From Minisyncoccota bacterium (lineage in GTDB: Bacteria > Patescibacteriota > Minisyncoccia > Minisyncoccales > JAGOPM01), in NCBI GenBank assembly GCA_041651395.1, contig JBAZJI010000001.1, positions 379,920-443,919 of the forward strand: a DNA stretch of 64,000 nucleotides, in the 5' to 3' direction. The translations under genes and the position numbers were made by a program. Each line of letters starts with the position of its first letter. The stretch's first letter is position 1. The notes below the pieces were generated by a model. That model saw only the letters and a list, made by a program, of their open reading frames with translations, had not been told where the DNA came from and made no database searches. Of the stretch, positions 6,364 to 27,143 are shown one piece after another.

Positions 6364-6714
6364 GTGGCAGAAAAAGAGCAAGATGGTATCGGGCAGAACG
6401 GGTTCGACCTTGAAACTCTCCAGTTTTTCGCAACCCAAAAATGCGACGCAGACGGTGTTTGCTATTCGCTGGATTTTACAGGAGATTTTGTTTCTGGGGC
6501 GAAACTTAGTATGTTTACGGGCGGCAAAGAAGAGAAGAAACTAGTATTTGTGGCCAGCATTGTTCCTGAAAAACTATACCCCACTAAAATTGCTGATGAA
6601 TTATTGCGCCAGCTTGTTGCCCCGCGCGGCGGTTTATTTACCGAGCGGGTTCCGCTAGTCTTGGTTAAGGCATTCGACGAGCTGATTGGCAAAGCACTTA
6701 GCACCAAAAATTAA
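6364..6714 (+). CDS. Hypothetical protein
   Basis: The ORF is open from 6325 (TTG). GTG at 6364 is preferred because AGGAGG lies 4 nt upstream. A terminator hairpin follows (TCCCA-N-TGGGA TTTTT). Confidence 0.5.
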   Translation: MAEKEQDGIGQNGFDLETLQFFATQKCDADGVCYSLDFTGDFVSGAKLSMFTGGKEEKKLVFVASIVPEKLYPTKIADELLRQLVAPRGGLFTERVPLVLVKAFDELIGKALSTKN

Positions 6715-6835
6715 TCCCATTACTTTGGGATTTTTGTTTTTGTTAATGATTGTTCACTATGGGGTCTTGCATATTTTTGAACTTATGATATTATATTGCG
6801 TAATCAAATTACTTAATTACTAATCCAAGCAAACC

Positions 6836-7540
6836 ATGATCGCAGAAGAGCAAAAAGAACAATCGAGCGAAATGCTCAATAAGGGAATTGTACTCGGACA
6901 TCAAGTTGCCCGCAGACATCCAAAAATGAAGCCTTTCATTTCCGGAATCAAGGCCGGTTTTGATGTGATTGATGAGGAAAAGACAAATTCCAGTCTTTTA
7001 GCCGCCAAGAACGCCATTCGGGATCTGATTTTGGCCGGCAAGACCATTCTGGTCGTGGGCACAAAAGTCCAAGCTAAAGATATGGTCAAGGATTTTGCGG
7101 TTGCCTGCAACCTTCCTTATGTCAATTTGCGTTGGCTTGGTGGAACCATTTCTAACTTTGAAGTTTTGAAAAAGAGGGTTAGCCACATGAAGTCTATTGA
7201 AATACTGAAAGCAACTGGAGAAATTTCTAAGTATACCAAAAAAGAGCAGGGTAAGATGCAGAAGGAATTAGAAAAGCTCTTAGCCAAATATGATGGCATT
7301 AGGGCGATGGATAGGCTGCCTGACGCGATCTTGGTTATGGATATGAAGAAAGATCATTTTGCCATCAAGGAAGCTAAAGACCGCAAGATTACCGTGATTG
7401 CTGTGGCTGATACCAATGTTGACCCGACTCCTGCTAGTTATCCGATTTACGCCAGTGACGATACTACTAATTCCATTAGATTTATTCTAGACGGCATCAA
7501 GGAATCGATACTCTCAGTCAGGGGACCACAGGCTAAGTGA
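6836..7540 (+). CDS. rpsB: 30S ribosomal protein S2
   Basis: 234 aa. GHQVARRHPKMKPFI and RWLGGTISNF are uS2 signatures. TGA stop. Confidence 0.9.
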   Translation: MIAEEQKEQSSEMLNKGIVLGHQVARRHPKMKPFISGIKAGFDVIDEEKTNSSLLAAKNAIRDLILAGKTILVVGTKVQAKDMVKDFAVACNLPYVNLRWLGGTISNFEVLKKRVSHMKSIEILKATGEISKYTKKEQGKMQKELEKLLAKYDGIRAMDRLPDAILVMDMKKDHFAIKEAKDRKITVIAVADTNVDPTPASYPIYASDDTTNSIRFILDGIKESILSVRGPQAK

Positions 7541-11568: not shown

Positions 11569-11723
11569 GCCAACACGTGACTAACCACGTCACTAGATCG
11601 TTTCAAATTGAATAACCACCTAAATTATTGATTTATATTTTTGGTGCCAGCCAAAAATATATTAGACGAAGCAATTTTTTGCGGCATTGGCCGTTAAAAG
11701 TTGTTTCATTATACGTTTATTTT

Positions 11724-13200
<1,477 letters not shown>

Positions 13201-13453
13201 TATTTTTTCATCTTTTTTCTTCGGAAAAATGCATGAAAGAAAAGGCGATAGGGTTTGAGAACTGGAATTCCGTTCTTAAATTCACAACTTAGCCTTACCC
13301 TTTGGGGCATCTTAGGAAATACCGAAGGGGACGTATAATGGACAACTTTTAGTGGCAAATGTTTTAGATGGTTATTCAATTTGAAGCGAAGCCCGCCGAA
13401 AGGCGGGTTTTTGCGTGTAATAAAAAACAGCTTAGTTAAAGCTGTTATGATGA

Positions 13454-17446: not shown

Positions 17447-18430
17447 TTATTTGAGGTAACCGTTTTCCTTATACCATTTAACTCCACGCTTGATGGCTTC
17501 GCGGATTGGGGTATAAACCAGCCCTAGTTCTTTAATCGATTTTTTGTTGTTGAAGTAAAATTTGATGCCGTGGAATTTAACCATGTCCAAAGTCATTTTT
17601 GGGCGGCCACCGGTTGCCCTCTTAAGTAAATCATTGGCGGCAGTCATTATCCATAAAATAAACTCTGGTAGGGGGATAAAAGGCGCTTGCGCTCCAATTT
17701 CTTGAGCGATTATTTTTTTGAGGCGATAATAAGAAATATTTTCCGCGCAAATGATATAGCGTTGGCCTTTTTTGCCATTTTCGATAGCTAAGCAGATGGC
17801 ACGGGCCACATCTTTAACGTCGACAACCGATTGCCCATTTTGGGGATAAAAAATATTATAAGGGAAACTGAATTTGAATAGGGAATCGGTAGTAATCCGG
17901 CGAATATCGCCATCACCATGCATGGAGGCGGGGCATAAGATGGTGGCGTCCAGGCCTAAGGTTACGGCTTTGAGCACTTCCTGCTCGCCGAAATATTTCG
18001 AGTCGCAATAGGCCACATTAAGCTTAGCCAAATTATAAACGGTATTTTCATCGGCAGGGGTATGGTCTTCATTATAACCAATGGTTACCGTGGAGCTGAT
18101 ATGGATAAGTTTTTTGATTTTATTTTTAAGGCAAGCCAAGGCGACATTTTTTGCCCCCTGATGGTTAACCTTAAACATTAAGTCGTTTTGCTTGCGCCAA
18201 TAGCTTACGATTCCGGCCATATTGACGACCGCATCATAGCCAATGATAAGTTTCTCTAACTGTTTTGCATCCGTAACATCCCCGAAAACCAGTTTAATTT
18301 TATTAGTATCTAAAAGTTCGGTTTTTGAAGTATCGGGCACCATAACCGTGACCTCGTGACCTTCAGAGATGAGTAAATTGGCCGTGTGATGGCCCAGAAA
18401 ACCTGAACCGCCTACAATTAATATCTTCAT
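17447..18430 (-). CDS. NAD-dependent epimerase/dehydratase (extended SDR)
   Basis: Start taken at MKILIVGGSGFLGHH (Rossmann GxxGxxG). YxxxK in AYCDSKYFGE. Confidence 0.8.
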   Translation of the reverse strand: MKILIVGGSGFLGHHTANLLISEGHEVTVMVPDTSKTELLDTNKIKLVFGDVTDAKQLEKLIIGYDAVVNMAGIVSYWRKQNDLMFKVNHQGAKNVALACLKNKIKKLIHISSTVTIGYNEDHTPADENTVYNLAKLNVAYCDSKYFGEQEVLKAVTLGLDATILCPASMHGDGDIRRITTDSLFKFSFPYNIFYPQNGQSVVDVKDVARAICLAIENGKKGQRYIICAENISYYRLKKIIAQEIGAQAPFIPLPEFILWIMTAANDLLKRATGGRPKMTLDMVKFHGIKFYFNNKKSIKELGLVYTPIREAIKRGVKWYKENGYLK

Positions 18431-18596
18431 AACAATATGCCATCTTACCAAAAAGGGGATATATTTTCCACAGGGGGATATTTTCAAAATAAAAGACTTG
18501 CTATAATAAGGCACAAGGTCGCGGGCCTGTAAAAGGCCTCAGTTATTAAAATAATCCCGCCCTGCCCGGGCATAAGGCAGGAAAAAAGTAATAAAC

Positions 18597-19280
18597 ATGA
18601 TTGATTTTAATGCATTCGTGACACCGTTTCAGGCGACCCTCGTGGACTCCCTGACTGCGGTTGTTCTTTTCCTGCCCAAGCTGATCCTGGCCCTTCTTGT
18701 TGCTTGGATCGGTTTCTGGATTGCGGGACTATTCGGCAAAGTCATTTCTGAGATTATCAAAGCCGTCAAATTTGATAAGATCTTTGAAGACAAGGGCTGG
18801 AGTGAAGCCCTCAAGAAAGCCGACATCGATGGCGCCCCTTCTTCATTTATTGGCGCGATCATCAAGTGGATTTTTGTCATCATTTTCTTAGTGATGATTT
18901 CGGACATTTTGGGTTTAGGGACATTTAGCGTTCTTCTTAAGGAGATCGTTGCCTACTTGCCCAATGTTGCCATTGCTTCTTTGCTTTTTGTGGCCACTGT
19001 CATTATCACTGACCTTGTTGAGAAAGTGATCGTGGTCTCCATTGGCGGAATGAAAGTTAGCTATGCAACGGCTATCGGTTCTGTGGTCAAATGGGCTATT
19101 TGGATTTTCTCCATTTTTGCCATCATGGACCAGCTAAGAATCGCCCCTTACATTGCCCAGACTTTGTTTGCCGGAATTACTTACTTCTTCGTTTTAGCCT
19201 TGGGCCTTGCCTTTGGGCTTGGCGGAAAGGAAGTGGCTGGAGATATCTTAAAAGATATCCGCGACAAATTCCGCAAGTAA
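18597..19280 (+). CDS. Integral membrane protein (multi-TM; small-conductance-channel-like TM repeats)
   Basis: 227 aa with at least 5 hydrophobic helices. Terminator at 19293-19320. Confidence 0.5.
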   Translation: MIDFNAFVTPFQATLVDSLTAVVLFLPKLILALLVAWIGFWIAGLFGKVISEIIKAVKFDKIFEDKGWSEALKKADIDGAPSSFIGAIIKWIFVIIFLVMISDILGLGTFSVLLKEIVAYLPNVAIASLLFVATVIITDLVEKVIVVSIGGMKVSYATAIGSVVKWAIWIFSIFAIMDQLRIAPYIAQTLFAGITYFFVLALGLAFGLGGKEVAGDILKDIRDKFRK

Positions 19281-19872: not shown

Positions 19873-20123
19873 GCCCTTACGCTCAGAAATGACTAAAACC
19901 TATTTTAAGAGCATCAAAAAACGTCAAGCGATTAACTAACCGTCCATTTGGACTGTGGTTAAGTCGCTCAAAAGCGACTTTTTTGTTTCTCACATTTCTG
20001 CCGCGGGTTCTTAAACAACTGAATATTAGAGAATATAAGATAAGGAAAATAATAAGAGTAAAGAACAAAGAAAATAAACAATAATATTATTTATATTATT
20101 GTGGTCTTAAATTGCTAGTTGAA

Positions 20124-23075
<2,952 letters not shown>

Positions 23076-23133
23076 CAGCTAGCAATTTAGGATCTCAGTA
23101 TCGTTAGCTTATATTCTTTTTGTGCACATTTAT

Positions 23134-23236
23134 TGGGGGCTATGCCAGTGTTGTCCCACCCGTTCCCATTCCGAACACGGAAGTGAAATACACTATGGCC
23201 GATGATAGTCGCAAGGCGAAAGTAGGTAGCCCCCGA
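23134..23236 (+). rRNA. rrf: 5S ribosomal RNA
   Basis: CCCACCCGTTCCCATTCCGAACACGGAAGTGAAA core. Flanked by the inverted repeat TGTGCACATTTAT / ATAAATGTGCACA. Confidence 0.9.
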
Positions 23237-23251
23237 TAAATGTGCACAAGC

Positions 23252-23281: not shown

Positions 23282-23341
23282 GCATTAGTTTATCGCCCGT
23301 GATAGTCTGTAAAAAGTATCTTAACAACAAAGGGGGTGTTT

Positions 23342-23836
23342 ATGCTCGATAAAAACAAGGCAGAAGATAGGGTAAGAAAAAGGCTTGACGAACTTGGGAT
23401 GGTTGTTTTTGCTGGTAGAGTTATAGTTCCAATAGATAAGGCGGTACTTGGCACTATCTCTTTGGGAAATTTCAAATCTGTAAAAAAGAATCGTCCAGTC
23501 GCTTACATCAGGAGTTGGCAGTCGGCTTCCTTAATGAAGATGCGCACCGACGCACACGGTCGCGCCGTTGGTTTCTACGATGCCAAAAGTTGGGATATGG
23601 GGATATCTTTTGCTGTTATCCGCGAAAAGGACAAAGGCTTGGTTTTCGAAACTGCTAAAAAATTATGCACGCGGAAAGTCTTGGGGGGATGTGACCAGCT
23701 AGTAATCAATATAAAGGAATACTCTTCGAAGGAGCCATATTTTCTTTGGAGGGTTCCAATTATACCAACTATACGTCGATATTTTTACATCGAGTATAGC
23801 GGTTCGGGCCTGCCCAAAATTGAGGAATATATATAG
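23342..23836 (+). CDS. Hypothetical protein upstream of the Ubl cassette (own terminator)
   Basis: ATG at 23342 with AAGGGGG upstream. 164 aa. Very weak PD-(D/E)xK-like pattern (AEDRVRKRLDELGMVVF ... WDMGISFAV ... LVFETAKK). Terminator TAGCC-GTGA-GGCTA-T7 at 23834-23855. Confidence 0.5.
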   Translation: MLDKNKAEDRVRKRLDELGMVVFAGRVIVPIDKAVLGTISLGNFKSVKKNRPVAYIRSWQSASLMKMRTDAHGRAVGFYDAKSWDMGISFAVIREKDKGLVFETAKKLCTRKVLGGCDQLVINIKEYSSKEPYFLWRVPIIPTIRRYFYIEYSGSGLPKIEEYI

Positions 23837-23917
23837 CCGTGAGGCTATTTTTTTATTGACAAAATTAAAGACTTATTGTATCGTATAACATTCACAATTT
23901 AATAAGAAGGAGGATAG

Positions 23918-25039
23918 ATGAATATTAAGGATTGCCGAGTCGGAGAAATGGTAATGATTAAGGCTACTTTAATTGAAAAGTTAAAGAGCTGCGTGAGATC
24001 CAGTGATAGCCGGAAGTCGTATTATGGAAAAGCCGTGACCATTTCTTACCTCGATCGCGTTAAGTGCCGGGCGAAAATCTTTGAGGATGGCCAGGAAGAT
24101 TGGTGGGAGGTATCGCTATTCGAAAAAGTTGAAGTTCCAATTAGCGTCGAAATTAAAAATGAGTTTGTTTACTACTACACTTCTACAACCAAGAGGGAAT
24201 CGACCACTTGGGAACTAAGGCGCAAGGTGCCGCTGGTCAAGCTACTCAAAAATTTGGAAGTCACAAAAAACATCGTAAATAGCGGTGGCACTGAGGCCTT
24301 GCCTAATGGGACAAGATTTTATTCTCGCATTGGGCAAAGTGAAGTGATTGTTCTTGAACAAGCCCCCAAAGTCGTCGATATCATGATAGGCGAGGACGCT
24401 TTTAGGTCAGATGGCAAAAGTGTGGCGAAATATTTTCTGGGAAAGTGGGAAAATCGTCATCATGTTGATAAGCCCTTCAAAATCGCTTATCCGTATGTGA
24501 TTTTTGTCGCTTATTTTCAGGAAAAATATCTTCGCACGCTTTCGGTATACTTCAGTAATGAAAGTATTTGTGACATTAACAACCCGCTGTTTTGCCCCCA
24601 TACACTGAATACGTGCATTGATTCTAGCGGATTTAACACTGTTTGTTTAGGCGATTACGAGACTAATACAGAGCAATCGCTCTGTGAACGGGTTAATGAT
24701 CTGCTCGATTATTTTTGGCATTCAGAGTGGGGAGACGATTATTACGACTACGACGATAGTGTGGAGGATGAAGACCAAGGCCTGGCCTTTGTGCGAAATC
24801 GCGATCTTGATAAGAGGGTCAAAACATTTAGCGCCTGGCAAACGGCTACCGAAAGGGATCCATTATTTGTTTGCAAGATAAATTGGGTGCCAACCGATTT
24901 GACAGTAGGGCAGGCAATGGCCGCGGCGCTCCGTGACGATTATGGCGATTTCGGGGAGAACGGCCTCATAGAACGTTCCTTGCATGATTACACCATCGAA
25001 TCTCTCACAGACGTCATTTATCAGACGCCTGAAGAGTAG
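23918..25039 (+). CDS. Candidate E2/UBC-like protein with extra N-terminal and acidic C-terminal regions
   Basis: 373 aa. AGGAGG SD and its own promoter/terminator. Beta-rich core (FKIAYPYVIFVAYFQEKYLRTLSVYF) followed by PLFCPHTLNTCIDSSGFNTVCLGDY, which resembles the E2 flap plus catalytic-Cys (G-x-x-hCL-D) layout. Assignment is by motif and context only. Confidence 0.4.
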   Translation: MNIKDCRVGEMVMIKATLIEKLKSCVRSSDSRKSYYGKAVTISYLDRVKCRAKIFEDGQEDWWEVSLFEKVEVPISVEIKNEFVYYYTSTTKRESTTWELRRKVPLVKLLKNLEVTKNIVNSGGTEALPNGTRFYSRIGQSEVIVLEQAPKVVDIMIGEDAFRSDGKSVAKYFLGKWENRHHVDKPFKIAYPYVIFVAYFQEKYLRTLSVYFSNESICDINNPLFCPHTLNTCIDSSGFNTVCLGDYETNTEQSLCERVNDLLDYFWHSEWGDDYYDYDDSVEDEDQGLAFVRNRDLDKRVKTFSAWQTATERDPLFVCKINWVPTDLTVGQAMAAALRDDYGDFGENGLIERSLHDYTIESLTDVIYQTPEE

Positions 25040-25132
25040 AATAGCGCCTTTTGGCGCTTTTTTGCTATATTGACACCAAGAAGAAAATATGTTAAAAAAT
25101 AATATTAACAAAACTATAAGGAGGAGGTTGAG

Positions 25133-25906
25133 GTGCTTGATATTTTTTATCTTGATGACCAGTTTAAGTTTGAGTCGGTGAAGAAAAACAGCTTTTATGT
25201 ATTGGCGAGTAACGGTTTATTTTTTTATCGGAAAATGAAGTTTTTTACTTCTTTGACCCCGGTATTCTTGCCAGCAAAAAAGCAATCGATTAGTCAGCTC
25301 CAGGCGGTTAAGCCATTTGTTGCGCTAAGTTTACCCAAGAAAATTCCTAATACGATTTTTGGGCAGGCTTTGTCGTTTTTTGGCGAAGTATTCAGCAAGT
25401 TCGCTGGGTCTGAGGCGGTTGTTCTGATTTATTGGAACAGCCTGACGGAAGAATATGATTTGCGCTGTCCCAAACAGGAAGTTGGTATCGGCTATATTAG
25501 CAGTTACGAGGTTGGGCCTAACCCGCCAAATTGTTTGCGCCTAGGAACCATTCATTCGCACGGTTCCATGGCGGCATTCCATTCCGGAGTCGATGACAAG
25601 GATGAGGAGCATGATGATGGCATCCACATTACAATCGGAACCATCAATTCTATGCCCAGTATTTCTTGTTCGGTCGTTATTTCCGGCGAGCGCTTTGAGA
25701 TTTCCGAAAAGGATATTTTTGAATATCCCAATGCTGGCCAGCATGATTTGCAGTGGATAAGGTCAGTCAAAAAAGCCGCGGTGGCCAGCTACTATGGAAA
25801 GAATAAAGTAGCTACGAGCAAGGGTAATTCTAAGATTTCCAGTTCGGACCTCGGTGATTTTTCATTGAGCAAATGCGTTCCGGAAATTTATGGACAGGAG
25901 GGCTAA
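25133..25906 (+). CDS. JAB/MPN (JAMM) metalloisopeptidase
   Basis: 257 aa with a GTG start 8 nt after AGGAGG. Complete JAMM signature: upstream Glu (GSEAVVLIYW) and HSHGSMAAFHSGVD (HxHx7Sx2D). Confidence 0.8.
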   Translation: MLDIFYLDDQFKFESVKKNSFYVLASNGLFFYRKMKFFTSLTPVFLPAKKQSISQLQAVKPFVALSLPKKIPNTIFGQALSFFGEVFSKFAGSEAVVLIYWNSLTEEYDLRCPKQEVGIGYISSYEVGPNPPNCLRLGTIHSHGSMAAFHSGVDDKDEEHDDGIHITIGTINSMPSISCSVVISGERFEISEKDIFEYPNAGQHDLQWIRSVKKAAVASYYGKNKVATSKGNSKISSSDLGDFSLSKCVPEIYGQEG

Positions 25907-26590
25907 TTGAATTGCAAAATTATTGGTTGCGGGGGAATTGGCACTTGGTTAGCAGAACCTTTGTGCCGTTATCTTAATCATAAGGAAGGACGGCATTGTG
26001 TCACCTTTATTGATGGGGACACCTTTGTGCCGGAGAATTCCTTACGCCAGTCGTTTGGTTCGCAAGGCAAAAAGGCGCGTGTTAAAGCCGGCGAGATTGC
26101 TCCTCGCTTTCGAAATTTGTCAGTGCGCGATATTGTGCAATACGTCACTAAAGAAAATATCAGTGCAGTCATCGCCCAAGGGGACACAGTGTTTCTTTGT
26201 GTCGATAATCACCAAACACGAAAACTTGTTTCTGACTATTGCCAGAAGCTTGATTGTGTGGTATTGATTTCGGGTGGCAATGAGTTAACAGATGGCAATA
26301 TCCAAACTTATATCAAGCGTGATGGTTTGGAAATTTGCCCACCAATAACTTATATGCATCCCGAAATTGTCAATCCCGATGACAGTAACCCGGGAGAAAT
26401 GAGTTGCGAGGAACTGTCACGCAGCGTTTCGGGCAAGCAAATTATCTTTACCAATTTTATGGCTGCCGCTTGCATGCTCGGTGCGTTTTTCTTGATTGAG
26501 GAGGATAGGCTTGATGATGTTGGGGAAATGTTCTTTGATTTGTTGACAGGTTCTGTCAAAAAAATTCCAAGGAGGAAAAGTCATGACTGA
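25907..26590 (+). CDS. Minimal E1-like (ThiF/MoeB family) adenylyltransferase
   Basis: 227 aa with a TTG start directly after the JAB stop. Motifs: IIGCGGIGTWLAEPL (GxGxxG), FIDGDTFVPENSLRQ, GKKARVKA, LCVDNHQTRKL. Candidate Cys in GEMSCEEL. No CxxC zinc motifs or rhodanese domain. Confidence 0.8.
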   Translation: MNCKIIGCGGIGTWLAEPLCRYLNHKEGRHCVTFIDGDTFVPENSLRQSFGSQGKKARVKAGEIAPRFRNLSVRDIVQYVTKENISAVIAQGDTVFLCVDNHQTRKLVSDYCQKLDCVVLISGGNELTDGNIQTYIKRDGLEICPPITYMHPEIVNPDDSNPGEMSCEELSRSVSGKQIIFTNFMAAACMLGAFFLIEEDRLDDVGEMFFDLLTGSVKKIPRRKSHD

Positions 26591-26843
26591 AGAAGAAAAA
26601 AAGGTTGAAGGCGCAGTAGAGACAGATGGCATTCTCGTTACCGTCATTTACGGTGCCAACGAGGAAACCATCAATGGGTTTACCGGCAAAACAGTCGGCG
26701 AAATCCGTCAGGCAAAGAGGGAATCTATGAATATCCCGCAGGGCGCCACAGCCTACTTGAATGGCGACCCGGTTGACGATGATGCCGTTGTCGAAGATGG
26801 AGATTCTCTGGAATTTTCCAAACTTTCCGGCAGAAAAGGCTAG
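26583..26843 (+). CDS. Ubiquitin-like beta-grasp protein (ThiS/MoaD-like) ending in Gly
   Basis: 86 aa. YLNGDPVDDDAVVEDGDSLEFSKLSGRKG-stop. Overlaps the E1 stop by 8 nt. AGGAGG SD. Confidence 0.7.
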   Translation: MTEEEKKVEGAVETDGILVTVIYGANEETINGFTGKTVGEIRQAKRESMNIPQGATAYLNGDPVDDDAVVEDGDSLEFSKLSGRKG

Positions 26844-26900: not shown

Positions 26901-26924
26901 AGCCCTAGAAAAAGGGCTTTTTTA
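26901..26924 (+). terminator. Terminator of the JAB-E1-Ubl operon
   Basis: AGCCCT-AGAAAA-AGGGCT followed by TTTTT. A second hairpin lies at 26933-26950. Confidence 0.65.
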
Positions 26925-27071: not shown

Positions 27072-27143
27072 TGGGCGATAGAGGATTCGAACCTCTAACC
27101 CTTCGCACGTCAAGCGAATGCTCTACCGTTGAGCTAACCGCCC
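27072..27143 (-). tRNA. tRNA-Val (anticodon GAC)
   Basis: Reverse complement GGGCGGT-TA-GCTC..GAGC-A-TTCGC-TTGACGT-GCGAA-..-AGAGG-TTCGAAT-CCTCT-ATCGCCC-A. CCA is not encoded. Confidence 0.9.

Follow-up and report, generated by a model that had tools for sequence, protein, structure and literature searches.

Which step of a ubiquitin-like modification pathway, if any, is carried out by a protein of 373 amino acids (aa) that is encoded beside a peptidase gene, an activating-enzyme gene and a gene for a small ubiquitin-like protein in a bacterium of the candidate phyla radiation (CPR)? The protein is the product of orf373, an open reading frame (ORF) at positions 23918..25039 (+) of a 64,000-nucleotide stretch of a Minisyncoccota genome (GenBank assembly GCA_041651395.1, contig JBAZJI010000001.1), hereafter the window. 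The gene starts with ATG, has an AAGGAGG ribosome-binding site ahead of it and is part of a five-gene block with the order orf166, orf373, a JAB-like gene, a gene for a ThiF-type activating enzyme (E1) and an ORF of 86 aa that encodes the ubiquitin-like protein (Ubl). A preliminary description of this DNA had proposed that orf373 is a non-canonical, cysteine-bearing relative of the ubiquitin-conjugating enzymes (E2s) that acts together with the JAB, E1 and Ubl products, and both the ORF and all peptides quoted from it were found in the translation.

Our analysis indicates that orf373 is probably the E2-like conjugating enzyme of a four-component cassette (E2-like protein, JAB, ThiF-type E1 and Ubl) and a very divergent relative of the '6d' or PRTRC systems. 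Operon type 6d, with the components Ubl, JAB, E1-like and E2-like protein (Table 1 of that study), was described by Iyer, Burroughs & Aravind 2006, who predicted the E2-like role (PMC1779556). From the preliminary description, the conservation of the cysteine and the association with the partner genes stand; for the ubiquitin-conjugating (UBC) fold, a Foldseek search with the full-length, multi-domain model gave no match. Three rival explanations, in which the module is a carrier with a fold other than UBC, a substrate or adaptor, or a part of a sulfur-carrier system, are less likely. Orthologs with 83 % and 79 % identity lie in a cassette of the same five genes, in one case with shared flanking genes as well, and the ratio of nonsynonymous to synonymous substitution rates (dN/dS) of orf373 is 0.07-0.18 with its minimum in the core, in line with purifying selection; orf373 is, therefore, a real and constrained gene. 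The cassette of this CPR bacterium is chromosomal and syntenic in a related genome.

Conserved residues and the link to Prok-E2_D

An exhaustive HMMER search over 1.84 billion cluster representatives (threshold E <= 0.001) yielded 403 representative clusters containing a module of ~200 aa, with 59 at E <= 1e-10. Residue counts given here refer to 152 retrieved family representatives, all of which (152/152) contain a single domain of ~190 columns that corresponds to query residues 122-339. A word-indexed protein search found six proteins only, even with a 71-sequence profile, and the query on its own gave only close orthologs; tblastn searches of plasmids and phages with the query module and with the family member P0007 returned no match, and the plasmid and phage relatives were reached through a search with the E1 instead.

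Conservation of the cysteine in the motif NTVCLGD had been set beforehand as a check on the E2 proposal. This residue, C243, is Cys in 148 of the 152 representatives, one of the four exceptions being a fragment, and it is the sole conserved cysteine among nine. N231 is Asn in 136 representatives and His in 12, and the family consensus reads n-L-P-N-(I/V)-x6-8-(V/I)-C-(L/M)-G, then F-W-x-S-x-F-N-x-D. The likeness to the active-site motif of canonical E2s that had been claimed earlier thus holds for the order, Asn followed by Cys, but not for the spacing, as Asn and Cys are 12 positions apart in the query, usually 9 across the family and 8 in the human enzyme UBE2D2. It does not hold either for the 'H' of the proposed P-H-x-x-N motif (H228), as this position is His in only 8 of the 152 representatives, with n-L-P-N in the family where the query has H-T-L-N; His228 was rejected as a counterpart of the HPN histidine because the position is not conserved. 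Further residues are retained across most of the family, including P129 (142/152), E147 (146/152), P150 (149/152), P192 (151/152), Y193 (130/152), W267 (145/152), W307 (151/152), P315 (134/152), F317 (150/152) and W323 (144/152).

The Pfam family Prok-E2_D (PF14460) was matched by 19 of 72 family members at E <= 0.01, and its gathering score of 25 bits was passed by two of ten inspected members, P0007 (27.2 bits) and P0016 (27.3 bits), both over profile positions 26-144 of 171. Among the proteins of the PRTRC systems, PRTRC-B itself is Prok-E2_D at 164.7 bits and PRTRC-C is Prok_Ub at 71 bits. The hidden Markov model of our family found PRTRC-B with an E-value of 7.6e-6 on the segment LPAMNVWEDGKICTGS...FWDSNFSH, and the hhalign alignment of the family with PRTRC-B (E 1.2e-6, probability 82 %, 172 columns) placed the Asn, the Cys and FWxSxF in register. 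Judged by these profile comparisons, the family belongs to Pfam Prok-E2_D / PRTRC protein B as a divergent branch. Of the checks that had been suggested at the outset, the comparison with the Pfam Prok-E2 families relates the family to Prok-E2_D and leaves the query alone unmatched, and the Foldseek search, run on the full-length model, returned no UBC.

For the comparison with canonical enzymes, four human E2s were used, the UBE2D2 sequence being confirmed from PDB entries. The highest-scoring local alignment by hhalign was that of the active-site segment, where the family's 'PNv....vClg' falls on UBE2D2 76-103 and N231 and C243 are paired with Asn77 and Cys85, respectively. The score of this match (24.7, P 0.0023) was reached by none of 200 column-shuffled controls (mean 12.3, standard deviation 2.0, maximum 19.8), and PRTRC-B independently gives the same Asn/Cys pairing with the canonical E2s. 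Global hhalign alignment to canonical UBCs was uninformative, with a probability of 0.2 %.

Partner genes and the proposed reaction path

Homologs lacking an E1/Ubl partner had been named as a finding that would speak against the E2 proposal. In every locus with flanking DNA sufficient to be informative, JAB, ThiF and Ubl genes come directly after one or more family members; this order was seen in the window, in loci L001-L005, L006, L008, L016, L018, L021, L022 and L024 and in the locus of P0012, with a JAB-like gene after the family members that is typically ~250 aa. The family member itself varies, being a 252-aa protein in L016, a 776-aa fusion in L018 and an 844-aa fusion in L013, where the order is the same, with a 373-aa JAB-like gene assigned on a weak Prok-JAB match and a Ubl on sequence resemblance. 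L013 also has a second, divergent ThiF-family gene (6370-7248, 292 aa) about 1.2 kb downstream of the cassette E1. Homologs of the window E1, JAB and Ubl in L006 and L008 matched with E-values of 1e-50, 1e-23 to 1e-28 and 1e-13, respectively.

The cassette recurs on phage DNA. Two viral contigs from IMG/VR (48 and 62 kb) carry the cassette, and in the 230-kb Bacillus jumbo phage vB_BceM_WH1 the genes gp214-216 (L011 3704-7300) are E2-like, JAB and ThiF, with no Ubl gene identified at that locus. The three WH1 genes are annotated as hypothetical or ThiF, and a NADAR-family gene, gp217, comes after them; related ThiF genes occur in phages KLEB27-3 and Edson and on 235-kb B. thuringiensis plasmids. 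The distribution on phages and plasmids suggests that the cassette takes part in conflicts of mobile elements with their hosts.

Several loci contain arrays of paralogs ahead of one JAB-E1-Ubl set, with three paralogs in L006 (7965-12127), three in L008 (7986-11839), at least four in L024 (3-5870), one of which has His for the Asn, and apparently eight genes of similar size at the P0012 locus. The paralog nearest to orf373 in L006 (8001-9041) and L008 (8001-8969) bears an N-terminal DUF2934 (PF11154) region, and both contigs are phage-like; their neighbours include sigma-70-like factor genes, a thioredoxin and a metallophosphatase, with an NAD-dependent DNA ligase near the L006 paralog and an Amidoligase_2 gene near the L008 paralog. 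Such arrays of three to eight paralogs before a single set, and the frequent joining of the module to long regions of undefined function, would fit a reading in which orf373 and its paralogs are substrates or non-catalytic adaptors of JAB-E1-Ubl, for example tagged structural or regulatory proteins of phages, and in which the cysteine is structural. The cysteine is moreover lost in P0034, P0060 (L008 8001-8969) and P0063, which have Phe, another non-Cys residue or a deletion there. We nevertheless regard a substrate or adaptor role as improbable, as the Cys is kept in 148/152 clusters at ~20-25 % identity beside a conserved Asn, as catalytic residues typically are, none of the four L024 paralogs has lost it and the module has homology to proteins that are classed as E2s. 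E2 folds without the cysteine, such as UEV and RWD, are known as non-catalytic derivatives of active E2s (PMC1779556), and P0034, P0060 and P0063 may be derivatives of a comparable kind. The P0060 locus additionally holds two Cys-bearing paralogs.

The partner proteins are recognisable, in part below curated thresholds. The JAB gene matched Prok-JAB (20 bits) and PRTRC_A (34 bits, cut-off 101.8), both sub-threshold, and carries the sequence H-S-H-x7-S-x2-D. The E1 has a GCGGIG nucleotide loop and an invariant Cys in EMSCEE, in agreement with the GxGGxG loop and one invariant Cys of homologous E1s; its match to PRTRC_ThiF, at 32 bits, lies under the cut-off of 144.75 bits, and among annotated plasmid proteins its best matches are PRTRC ThiF. 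Ubl homologs in six other loci conserve ...LEF-x-K-x-(A/S)-G-x-K-G, and PRTRC-C ends in GTKG. The G-x-K-G forms the very end of the protein in the window, L016 and L013, and is followed by a tail of 2-11 residues in L018 (4058-4300), L008 (13638-13976) and L006 (14091-14450), which implies C-terminal processing of the tailed forms. By their sequence, these ends follow the pattern of a conjugatable Ubl that would sometimes need maturation by the JAB.

The same partners could, on the other hand, belong to a sulfur carrier of the ThiS/MoaD/CysO type, in which the E1 thiocarboxylates the Ubl, the JAB matures or recycles it and orf373 is a Cys-persulfide or sulfur-acceptor enzyme. In curated libraries the E1 is nearest to ThiF, MoeB and TcdA, and JAB-E1-Ubl triads are known from sulfur-transfer operons (Iyer et al. 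2006, PMC1779556). This explanation is very improbable in view of a cassette without a rhodanese domain, a cysteine synthase or a thiamine or molybdopterin gene, a Ubl with K-G at its end, where sulfur carriers have G-G, and with no ThiS/MoaD match in Pfam, the location of the module on phage contigs and plasmids and the PRTRC affinity of the E1 among annotated plasmid proteins.

For orf373 as the E2-like enzyme, the following relay from the E1 over Cys243 to a target is proposed from what is known of related families. The 227-aa E1 would adenylate the C-terminal Gly of the 86-aa Ubl (...RKG), which would then probably be held on the invariant Cys of the E1 and pass to Cys243 of orf373 as a thioester, with Asn231 in the LPN-like motif taking the part of the Asn of the E2 'HPN' motif. 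From there orf373 would transfer the Ubl to a lysine of the target, with no separate ubiquitin ligase (E3) involved, and the choice of target would come from its accessory parts, namely the beta domain at the N-terminus, perhaps together with the acidic loop and the C-terminal motif. The JAB peptidase would reverse the conjugation and, in relatives where a short tail follows the Gly, would also mature the Ubl. The idea of the preliminary description that orf373 may combine E2 and E3-like functions is consistent with the variable fusions at the ends of the module, the paralog arrays and a cassette in which no E3-like gene is present.

Architecture, fold and layout of the locus

An AlphaFold2 model built with 71 sequences reached a mean predicted local distance difference test (pLDDT) of 84.1 and a predicted template modelling (TM) score of 0.67; a first model from three close sequences (pLDDT 37) was discarded. 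The simple three-part layout proposed earlier gives way to a subfamily-specific beta domain (residues 1-70), a region of residues ~70-120 that is common to the N-termini of many short family members, and the conserved module (122-339). The stretch of about 120 aa before the core, which had been thought to be a possible beta-barrel, in fact holds the small beta domain and, separately, the meander and helix of residues 75-116, followed by a low-confidence linker (117-131). Residues 1-70 were modelled with strands at 11-14, 39-46, 51-54, 62-64 and 68-70 (pLDDT 72-90) and were found by jackhmmer in about 12 representatives only, from clusters of 327-358 aa. They show weak matches to phage families of undefined function (phrog_17705, E 0.003), and are a candidate target- or partner-binding module; a phage protein of 71 aa (F8UBF8) aligned, at an unspecified place in the model, with a target-normalised TM score of 0.74 over 67 columns.

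Within the module pLDDT is mostly 87-98. The model has strands at 132-138, 141-148 and 151-157, a helix at 166-174 and then the segments FKIAYPYVIFVAYFQEKYLRTLSVYF, which had been described as beta-strand-like and are indeed modelled as strands (187-191, 193-201 and 204-213); short strands run into C243 and are followed by the helix 255-268, which bears F266 and W267. The helices at 290-342 carry W307, P315, F317 and W323, so the 'helical tail', earlier taken for a third part, belongs to the conserved domain, as four of the most invariant residues are located there. The acidic Tyr/Asp segment (DYYDYDD, 272-289) is present as described but is no separate part of the protein, being a low-confidence (pLDDT 60-67) lineage-specific loop that is conserved in three close homologs only and variable across the family. 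At the C-terminus, a motif L-x-D-h-h-Y-x-h-x-E is kept across a 15-member subfamily behind a linker that varies; this short peptide may serve to dock the E1 or some other partner. Across the family, members span 250 to 980 aa with very different regions before or after the module, and the only Pfam domain seen outside it is DUF2934, in two members.

A number of results weigh against orf373 being an E2-like enzyme. The protein had no usable match in Pfam, NCBIfam or PADLOC, with none at E <= 1; the PHROG scan gave nothing usable beyond the weak match of residues 1-70, and the query itself falls below every curated threshold for Prok-E2_D or PRTRC protein B. In every column of the family, His is found in fewer than 30 of the 152 representatives; with no conserved His at all, the family is without the HPN His and also without the C-terminal His of 6d proteins. 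The query also departs from family-conserved residues (R153 = V, R213 = S, D222 = N). PDB sequences were matched neither by phmmer nor by the family profile, and the local match to canonical E2s comprises 28 columns only, at an HH probability of 12 %. A Foldseek search with the full-length, multi-domain model against 350,542 PDB chains gave no hit at E <= 0.001 and no UBC in the top 50, and the module of ~200-265 aa with at least six strands before the Cys is much larger than the 150-aa UBC core. The literature search, finally, found no report of a biochemical test of any Prok-E2_D protein.

Some of these observations would also be accounted for if the module were a Cys-dependent Ubl transferase or ligase with a fold of its own, in which the Asn...Cys motif is convergent and the name Prok-E2_D applies at the level of the motif only. 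The model is confident, yet found no UBC in Foldseek, the module has extra strands and helices, the direct profile match to UBC is short, and no solved structure was found for any relative in Prok-E2_D. We consider this explanation unlikely. The active-site alignment scored above all 200 shuffles and is independently matched by that of PRTRC-B; for 6d proteins, E2 profile matches and congruent secondary structure were reported by Iyer et al. 2006 (PMC1779556); the strands, Asn loop, Cys and long FW-bearing helix of the AlphaFold2 model follow the UBC order; and the Foldseek query was the full-length multi-domain model only.

The block of five genes lies between the 5S rRNA gene and a minus-strand tRNA gene (27072-27143), and its features are collected in the table. 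Both hairpins flanking orf373 have stems and TTGACA (-35) boxes that are kept in L001 and L005, and loops that differ, as for the hairpin at 25043-25058 in L005; since stems and boxes are kept and the loops vary, a separate orf373 transcript is supported in this lineage. The earlier proposal of separate transcription with terminators at both ends is thereby supported for this lineage only; elsewhere in the family, the E2-like gene directly adjoins the JAB gene or overlaps with it.

Features of the orf373 cassette, with positions in the window
Feature	Position	Strand	Basis
orf166, first cassette gene	23336..23836	+	ORF call
Terminator-like hairpin (23833-23848) with T-run, then promoter-like TTGACA-17-TATCGT (23856-23884)	23833..23884	+	
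orf373, whole gene including stop codon, predicted E2-like protein	23918..25039	+	
Residues 1-70, small beta-rich N-terminal domain	23918..24127	+	AlphaFold2, jackhmmer
Residues 75-116, three-strand meander and helix	24140..24265	+	AlphaFold2, family alignment
Residues 122-339, conserved Prok-E2_D-like module	24281..24934	+	family domain, conservation, profile alignment
Asn231 codon, predicted equivalent of the E2 'HPN' Asn	24608..24610	+	family count, UBE2D2 Asn77 alignment
Cys243 codon, predicted catalytic (thioester) Cys	24644..24646	+	family count; aligns with UBE2D2 Cys85 and PRTRC-B 'GKIC' Cys
Residues 272-289, acidic Asp/Tyr-rich loop	24731..24784	+	lineage-specific insertion, variable position
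Residues 340-373, linker and C-terminal helix (360-369)	24935..25036	+	subfamily alignment, AlphaFold2
Terminator-like hairpin (25043-25058) with T-run and TTGACA box (25070-25075), between orf373 and JAB gene	25043..25075	+	
JAB/JAMM metallopeptidase, PRTRC protein A-like, motif HSHGSMAAFHSGVD	25133..25906	+	profile matches, homologs
Minimal ThiF-type E1, 227 aa	25907..26590	+	PF00899 at 64.5 bits
Ubiquitin-like protein, 86 aa, ending ...SGRKG-stop	26583..26843	+	homologs in six other loci
Terminator-like hairpin ending the JAB-E1-Ubl unit	26901..26918	+	

The first gene, orf166, has its own terminator-like hairpin and is kept in three closely related genomes, with counterparts (164 and 162 aa) only in the close relatives L001-L005. 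It had no match in Pfam, NCBIfam, PADLOC or PHROG and no counterpart in more distant loci, and was rejected as the 'alpha-helical protein' of 6d operons or as PRTRC-E, to which it has no similarity. Att-like direct repeats were searched for around the cassette and none was convincing, so there is no evidence for a recently integrated element. The taxonomic labels of the relatives clash at phylum level within CPR, as the metagenome-assembled genome with the 83 % ortholog (the contig of L001 and L023) is labelled Candidatus Saccharibacteria and the window protein Candidatus Paceibacterota. The rRNA genes of the window (16S 11722-13205, 23S 20118-23081, 5S 23132-23238) are unlinked, because ~6.9 kb of protein-coding DNA, including an epimerase-like gene (17447-18514, minus strand) and a membrane protein gene (18597-19280), separates the 16S from the 23S-5S pair. 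Unlinked rRNA genes are frequently reported in CPR bacteria.

Significance and relation to known systems

This kind of protein was known before, having been predicted in 2006 and named in Pfam and NCBIfam; new here is a clade that is unrecognised by curated models, lacks the hallmark His, recurs on phage contigs and forms arrays of E2-like genes. In our search of literature and databases, classes 6b (CBASS Cap2), 6c (Bil) and 6e (Bub) proved to have experimental or curated antiphage characterization, a 6A-MBL anti-phage system is named by an NCBIfam model, and no experimental work on 6d/PRTRC was found. The locus gives access to a large, highly divergent and so far unannotated branch of 6d, the one of the five classes predicted in 2006 (6a-6e) that was left over in this search. 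It is also a tractable test case, with four small genes (the E2-like gene, the JAB, the 227-aa E1 and an 86-aa Ubl that is already Gly-terminated), recurrence on phage contigs and paralog arrays with differing end domains. If Cys243 carries the Ubl, this would show how E2-type carriers can pick targets without E3s and would reveal the purpose of ubiquitin-like tagging in phages and plasmids, and the family profile would name hundreds of clusters that are presently 'hypothetical'. A more far-reaching reading, to which we give rather little credence, is that at least 403 clusters form a distinct unannotated clade on phages and mobile elements, in which one E1/JAB/Ubl set serves one to eight E2/E3-like paralogs with targeting domains of their own, as a case of 'one E1, many E2s' outside eukaryotes, and of which the CPR bacterium domesticated one copy; in a still more radical version, the carrier module would not have the UBC fold.

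Like UBE2D2, a canonical E2, orf373 has an Asn, about 8-12 residues further on (I/V)-C-(L/M) and then a long helix, and it has a partner E1 and a Gly-terminated Ubl, here known from genes alone. It differs in lacking the HPN His, global similarity, a Foldseek match and an E3 partner gene, and its module is 50-75 % larger, with extra strands.

With Bil (6c), Bub (6e) and CBASS Cap2 (6b), the cassette shares the bacterial or phage-associated setting of operons with E1, E2-like and JAB genes, some with a Ubl, and for Bil it was proposed that the E2 recognises targets directly, without an E3 (preprint 10.1101/2024.11.21.623953). PADLOC, however, had no match for orf373, the JAB or the Ubl and only weak matches to the adenylation domain for the E1 (<= 24 bits), which here is a minimal, stand-alone 227-aa ThiF-type protein, unlike both the multidomain BilD and the E1s that are fused to an E2 or a JAB. 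Genes for DUF6527 or a CD-NTase are absent and, as the conserved residue is Cys, nothing points to the Ser/oxyester chemistry of Bub.

The closest relatives are the 6d and PRTRC systems. The window has no genes for ParB, PRTRC-E or the alpha-helical protein between the 5S rRNA and the tRNA, and its Ubl gene follows that of the E1 instead of preceding it; in Sulfuricystis pSTJ1, for instance, the PRTRC cassette runs in the order E, C, two hypothetical proteins, B, A(JAB) and ThiF. The orf373 family furthermore has extra N-terminal domains, long fusion proteins (700-980 aa) and tandem arrays of paralogs, and its close relatives are phage-borne, whereas the cassette described here is chromosomal. 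The E2-like proteins of 6d lack the classical HPN His but have an absolutely conserved His after the Cys (PMC1779556); the corresponding His of PRTRC-B (FSHPN) falls on a variable column of our family, which conserves Asn272 and Asp274 instead. PRTRC-B and the orf373 family are, nonetheless, alike in lacking the canonical HPN His and in having roles that are predicted, and they are homologous over the whole module, including the motifs L-P-x-N...G-x-(I/V)-C-x-G and F-W-x-S-x-F, with the same order of E2-like, JAB (PRTRC-A-like) and ThiF genes and a small Ubl ending in ...KG.

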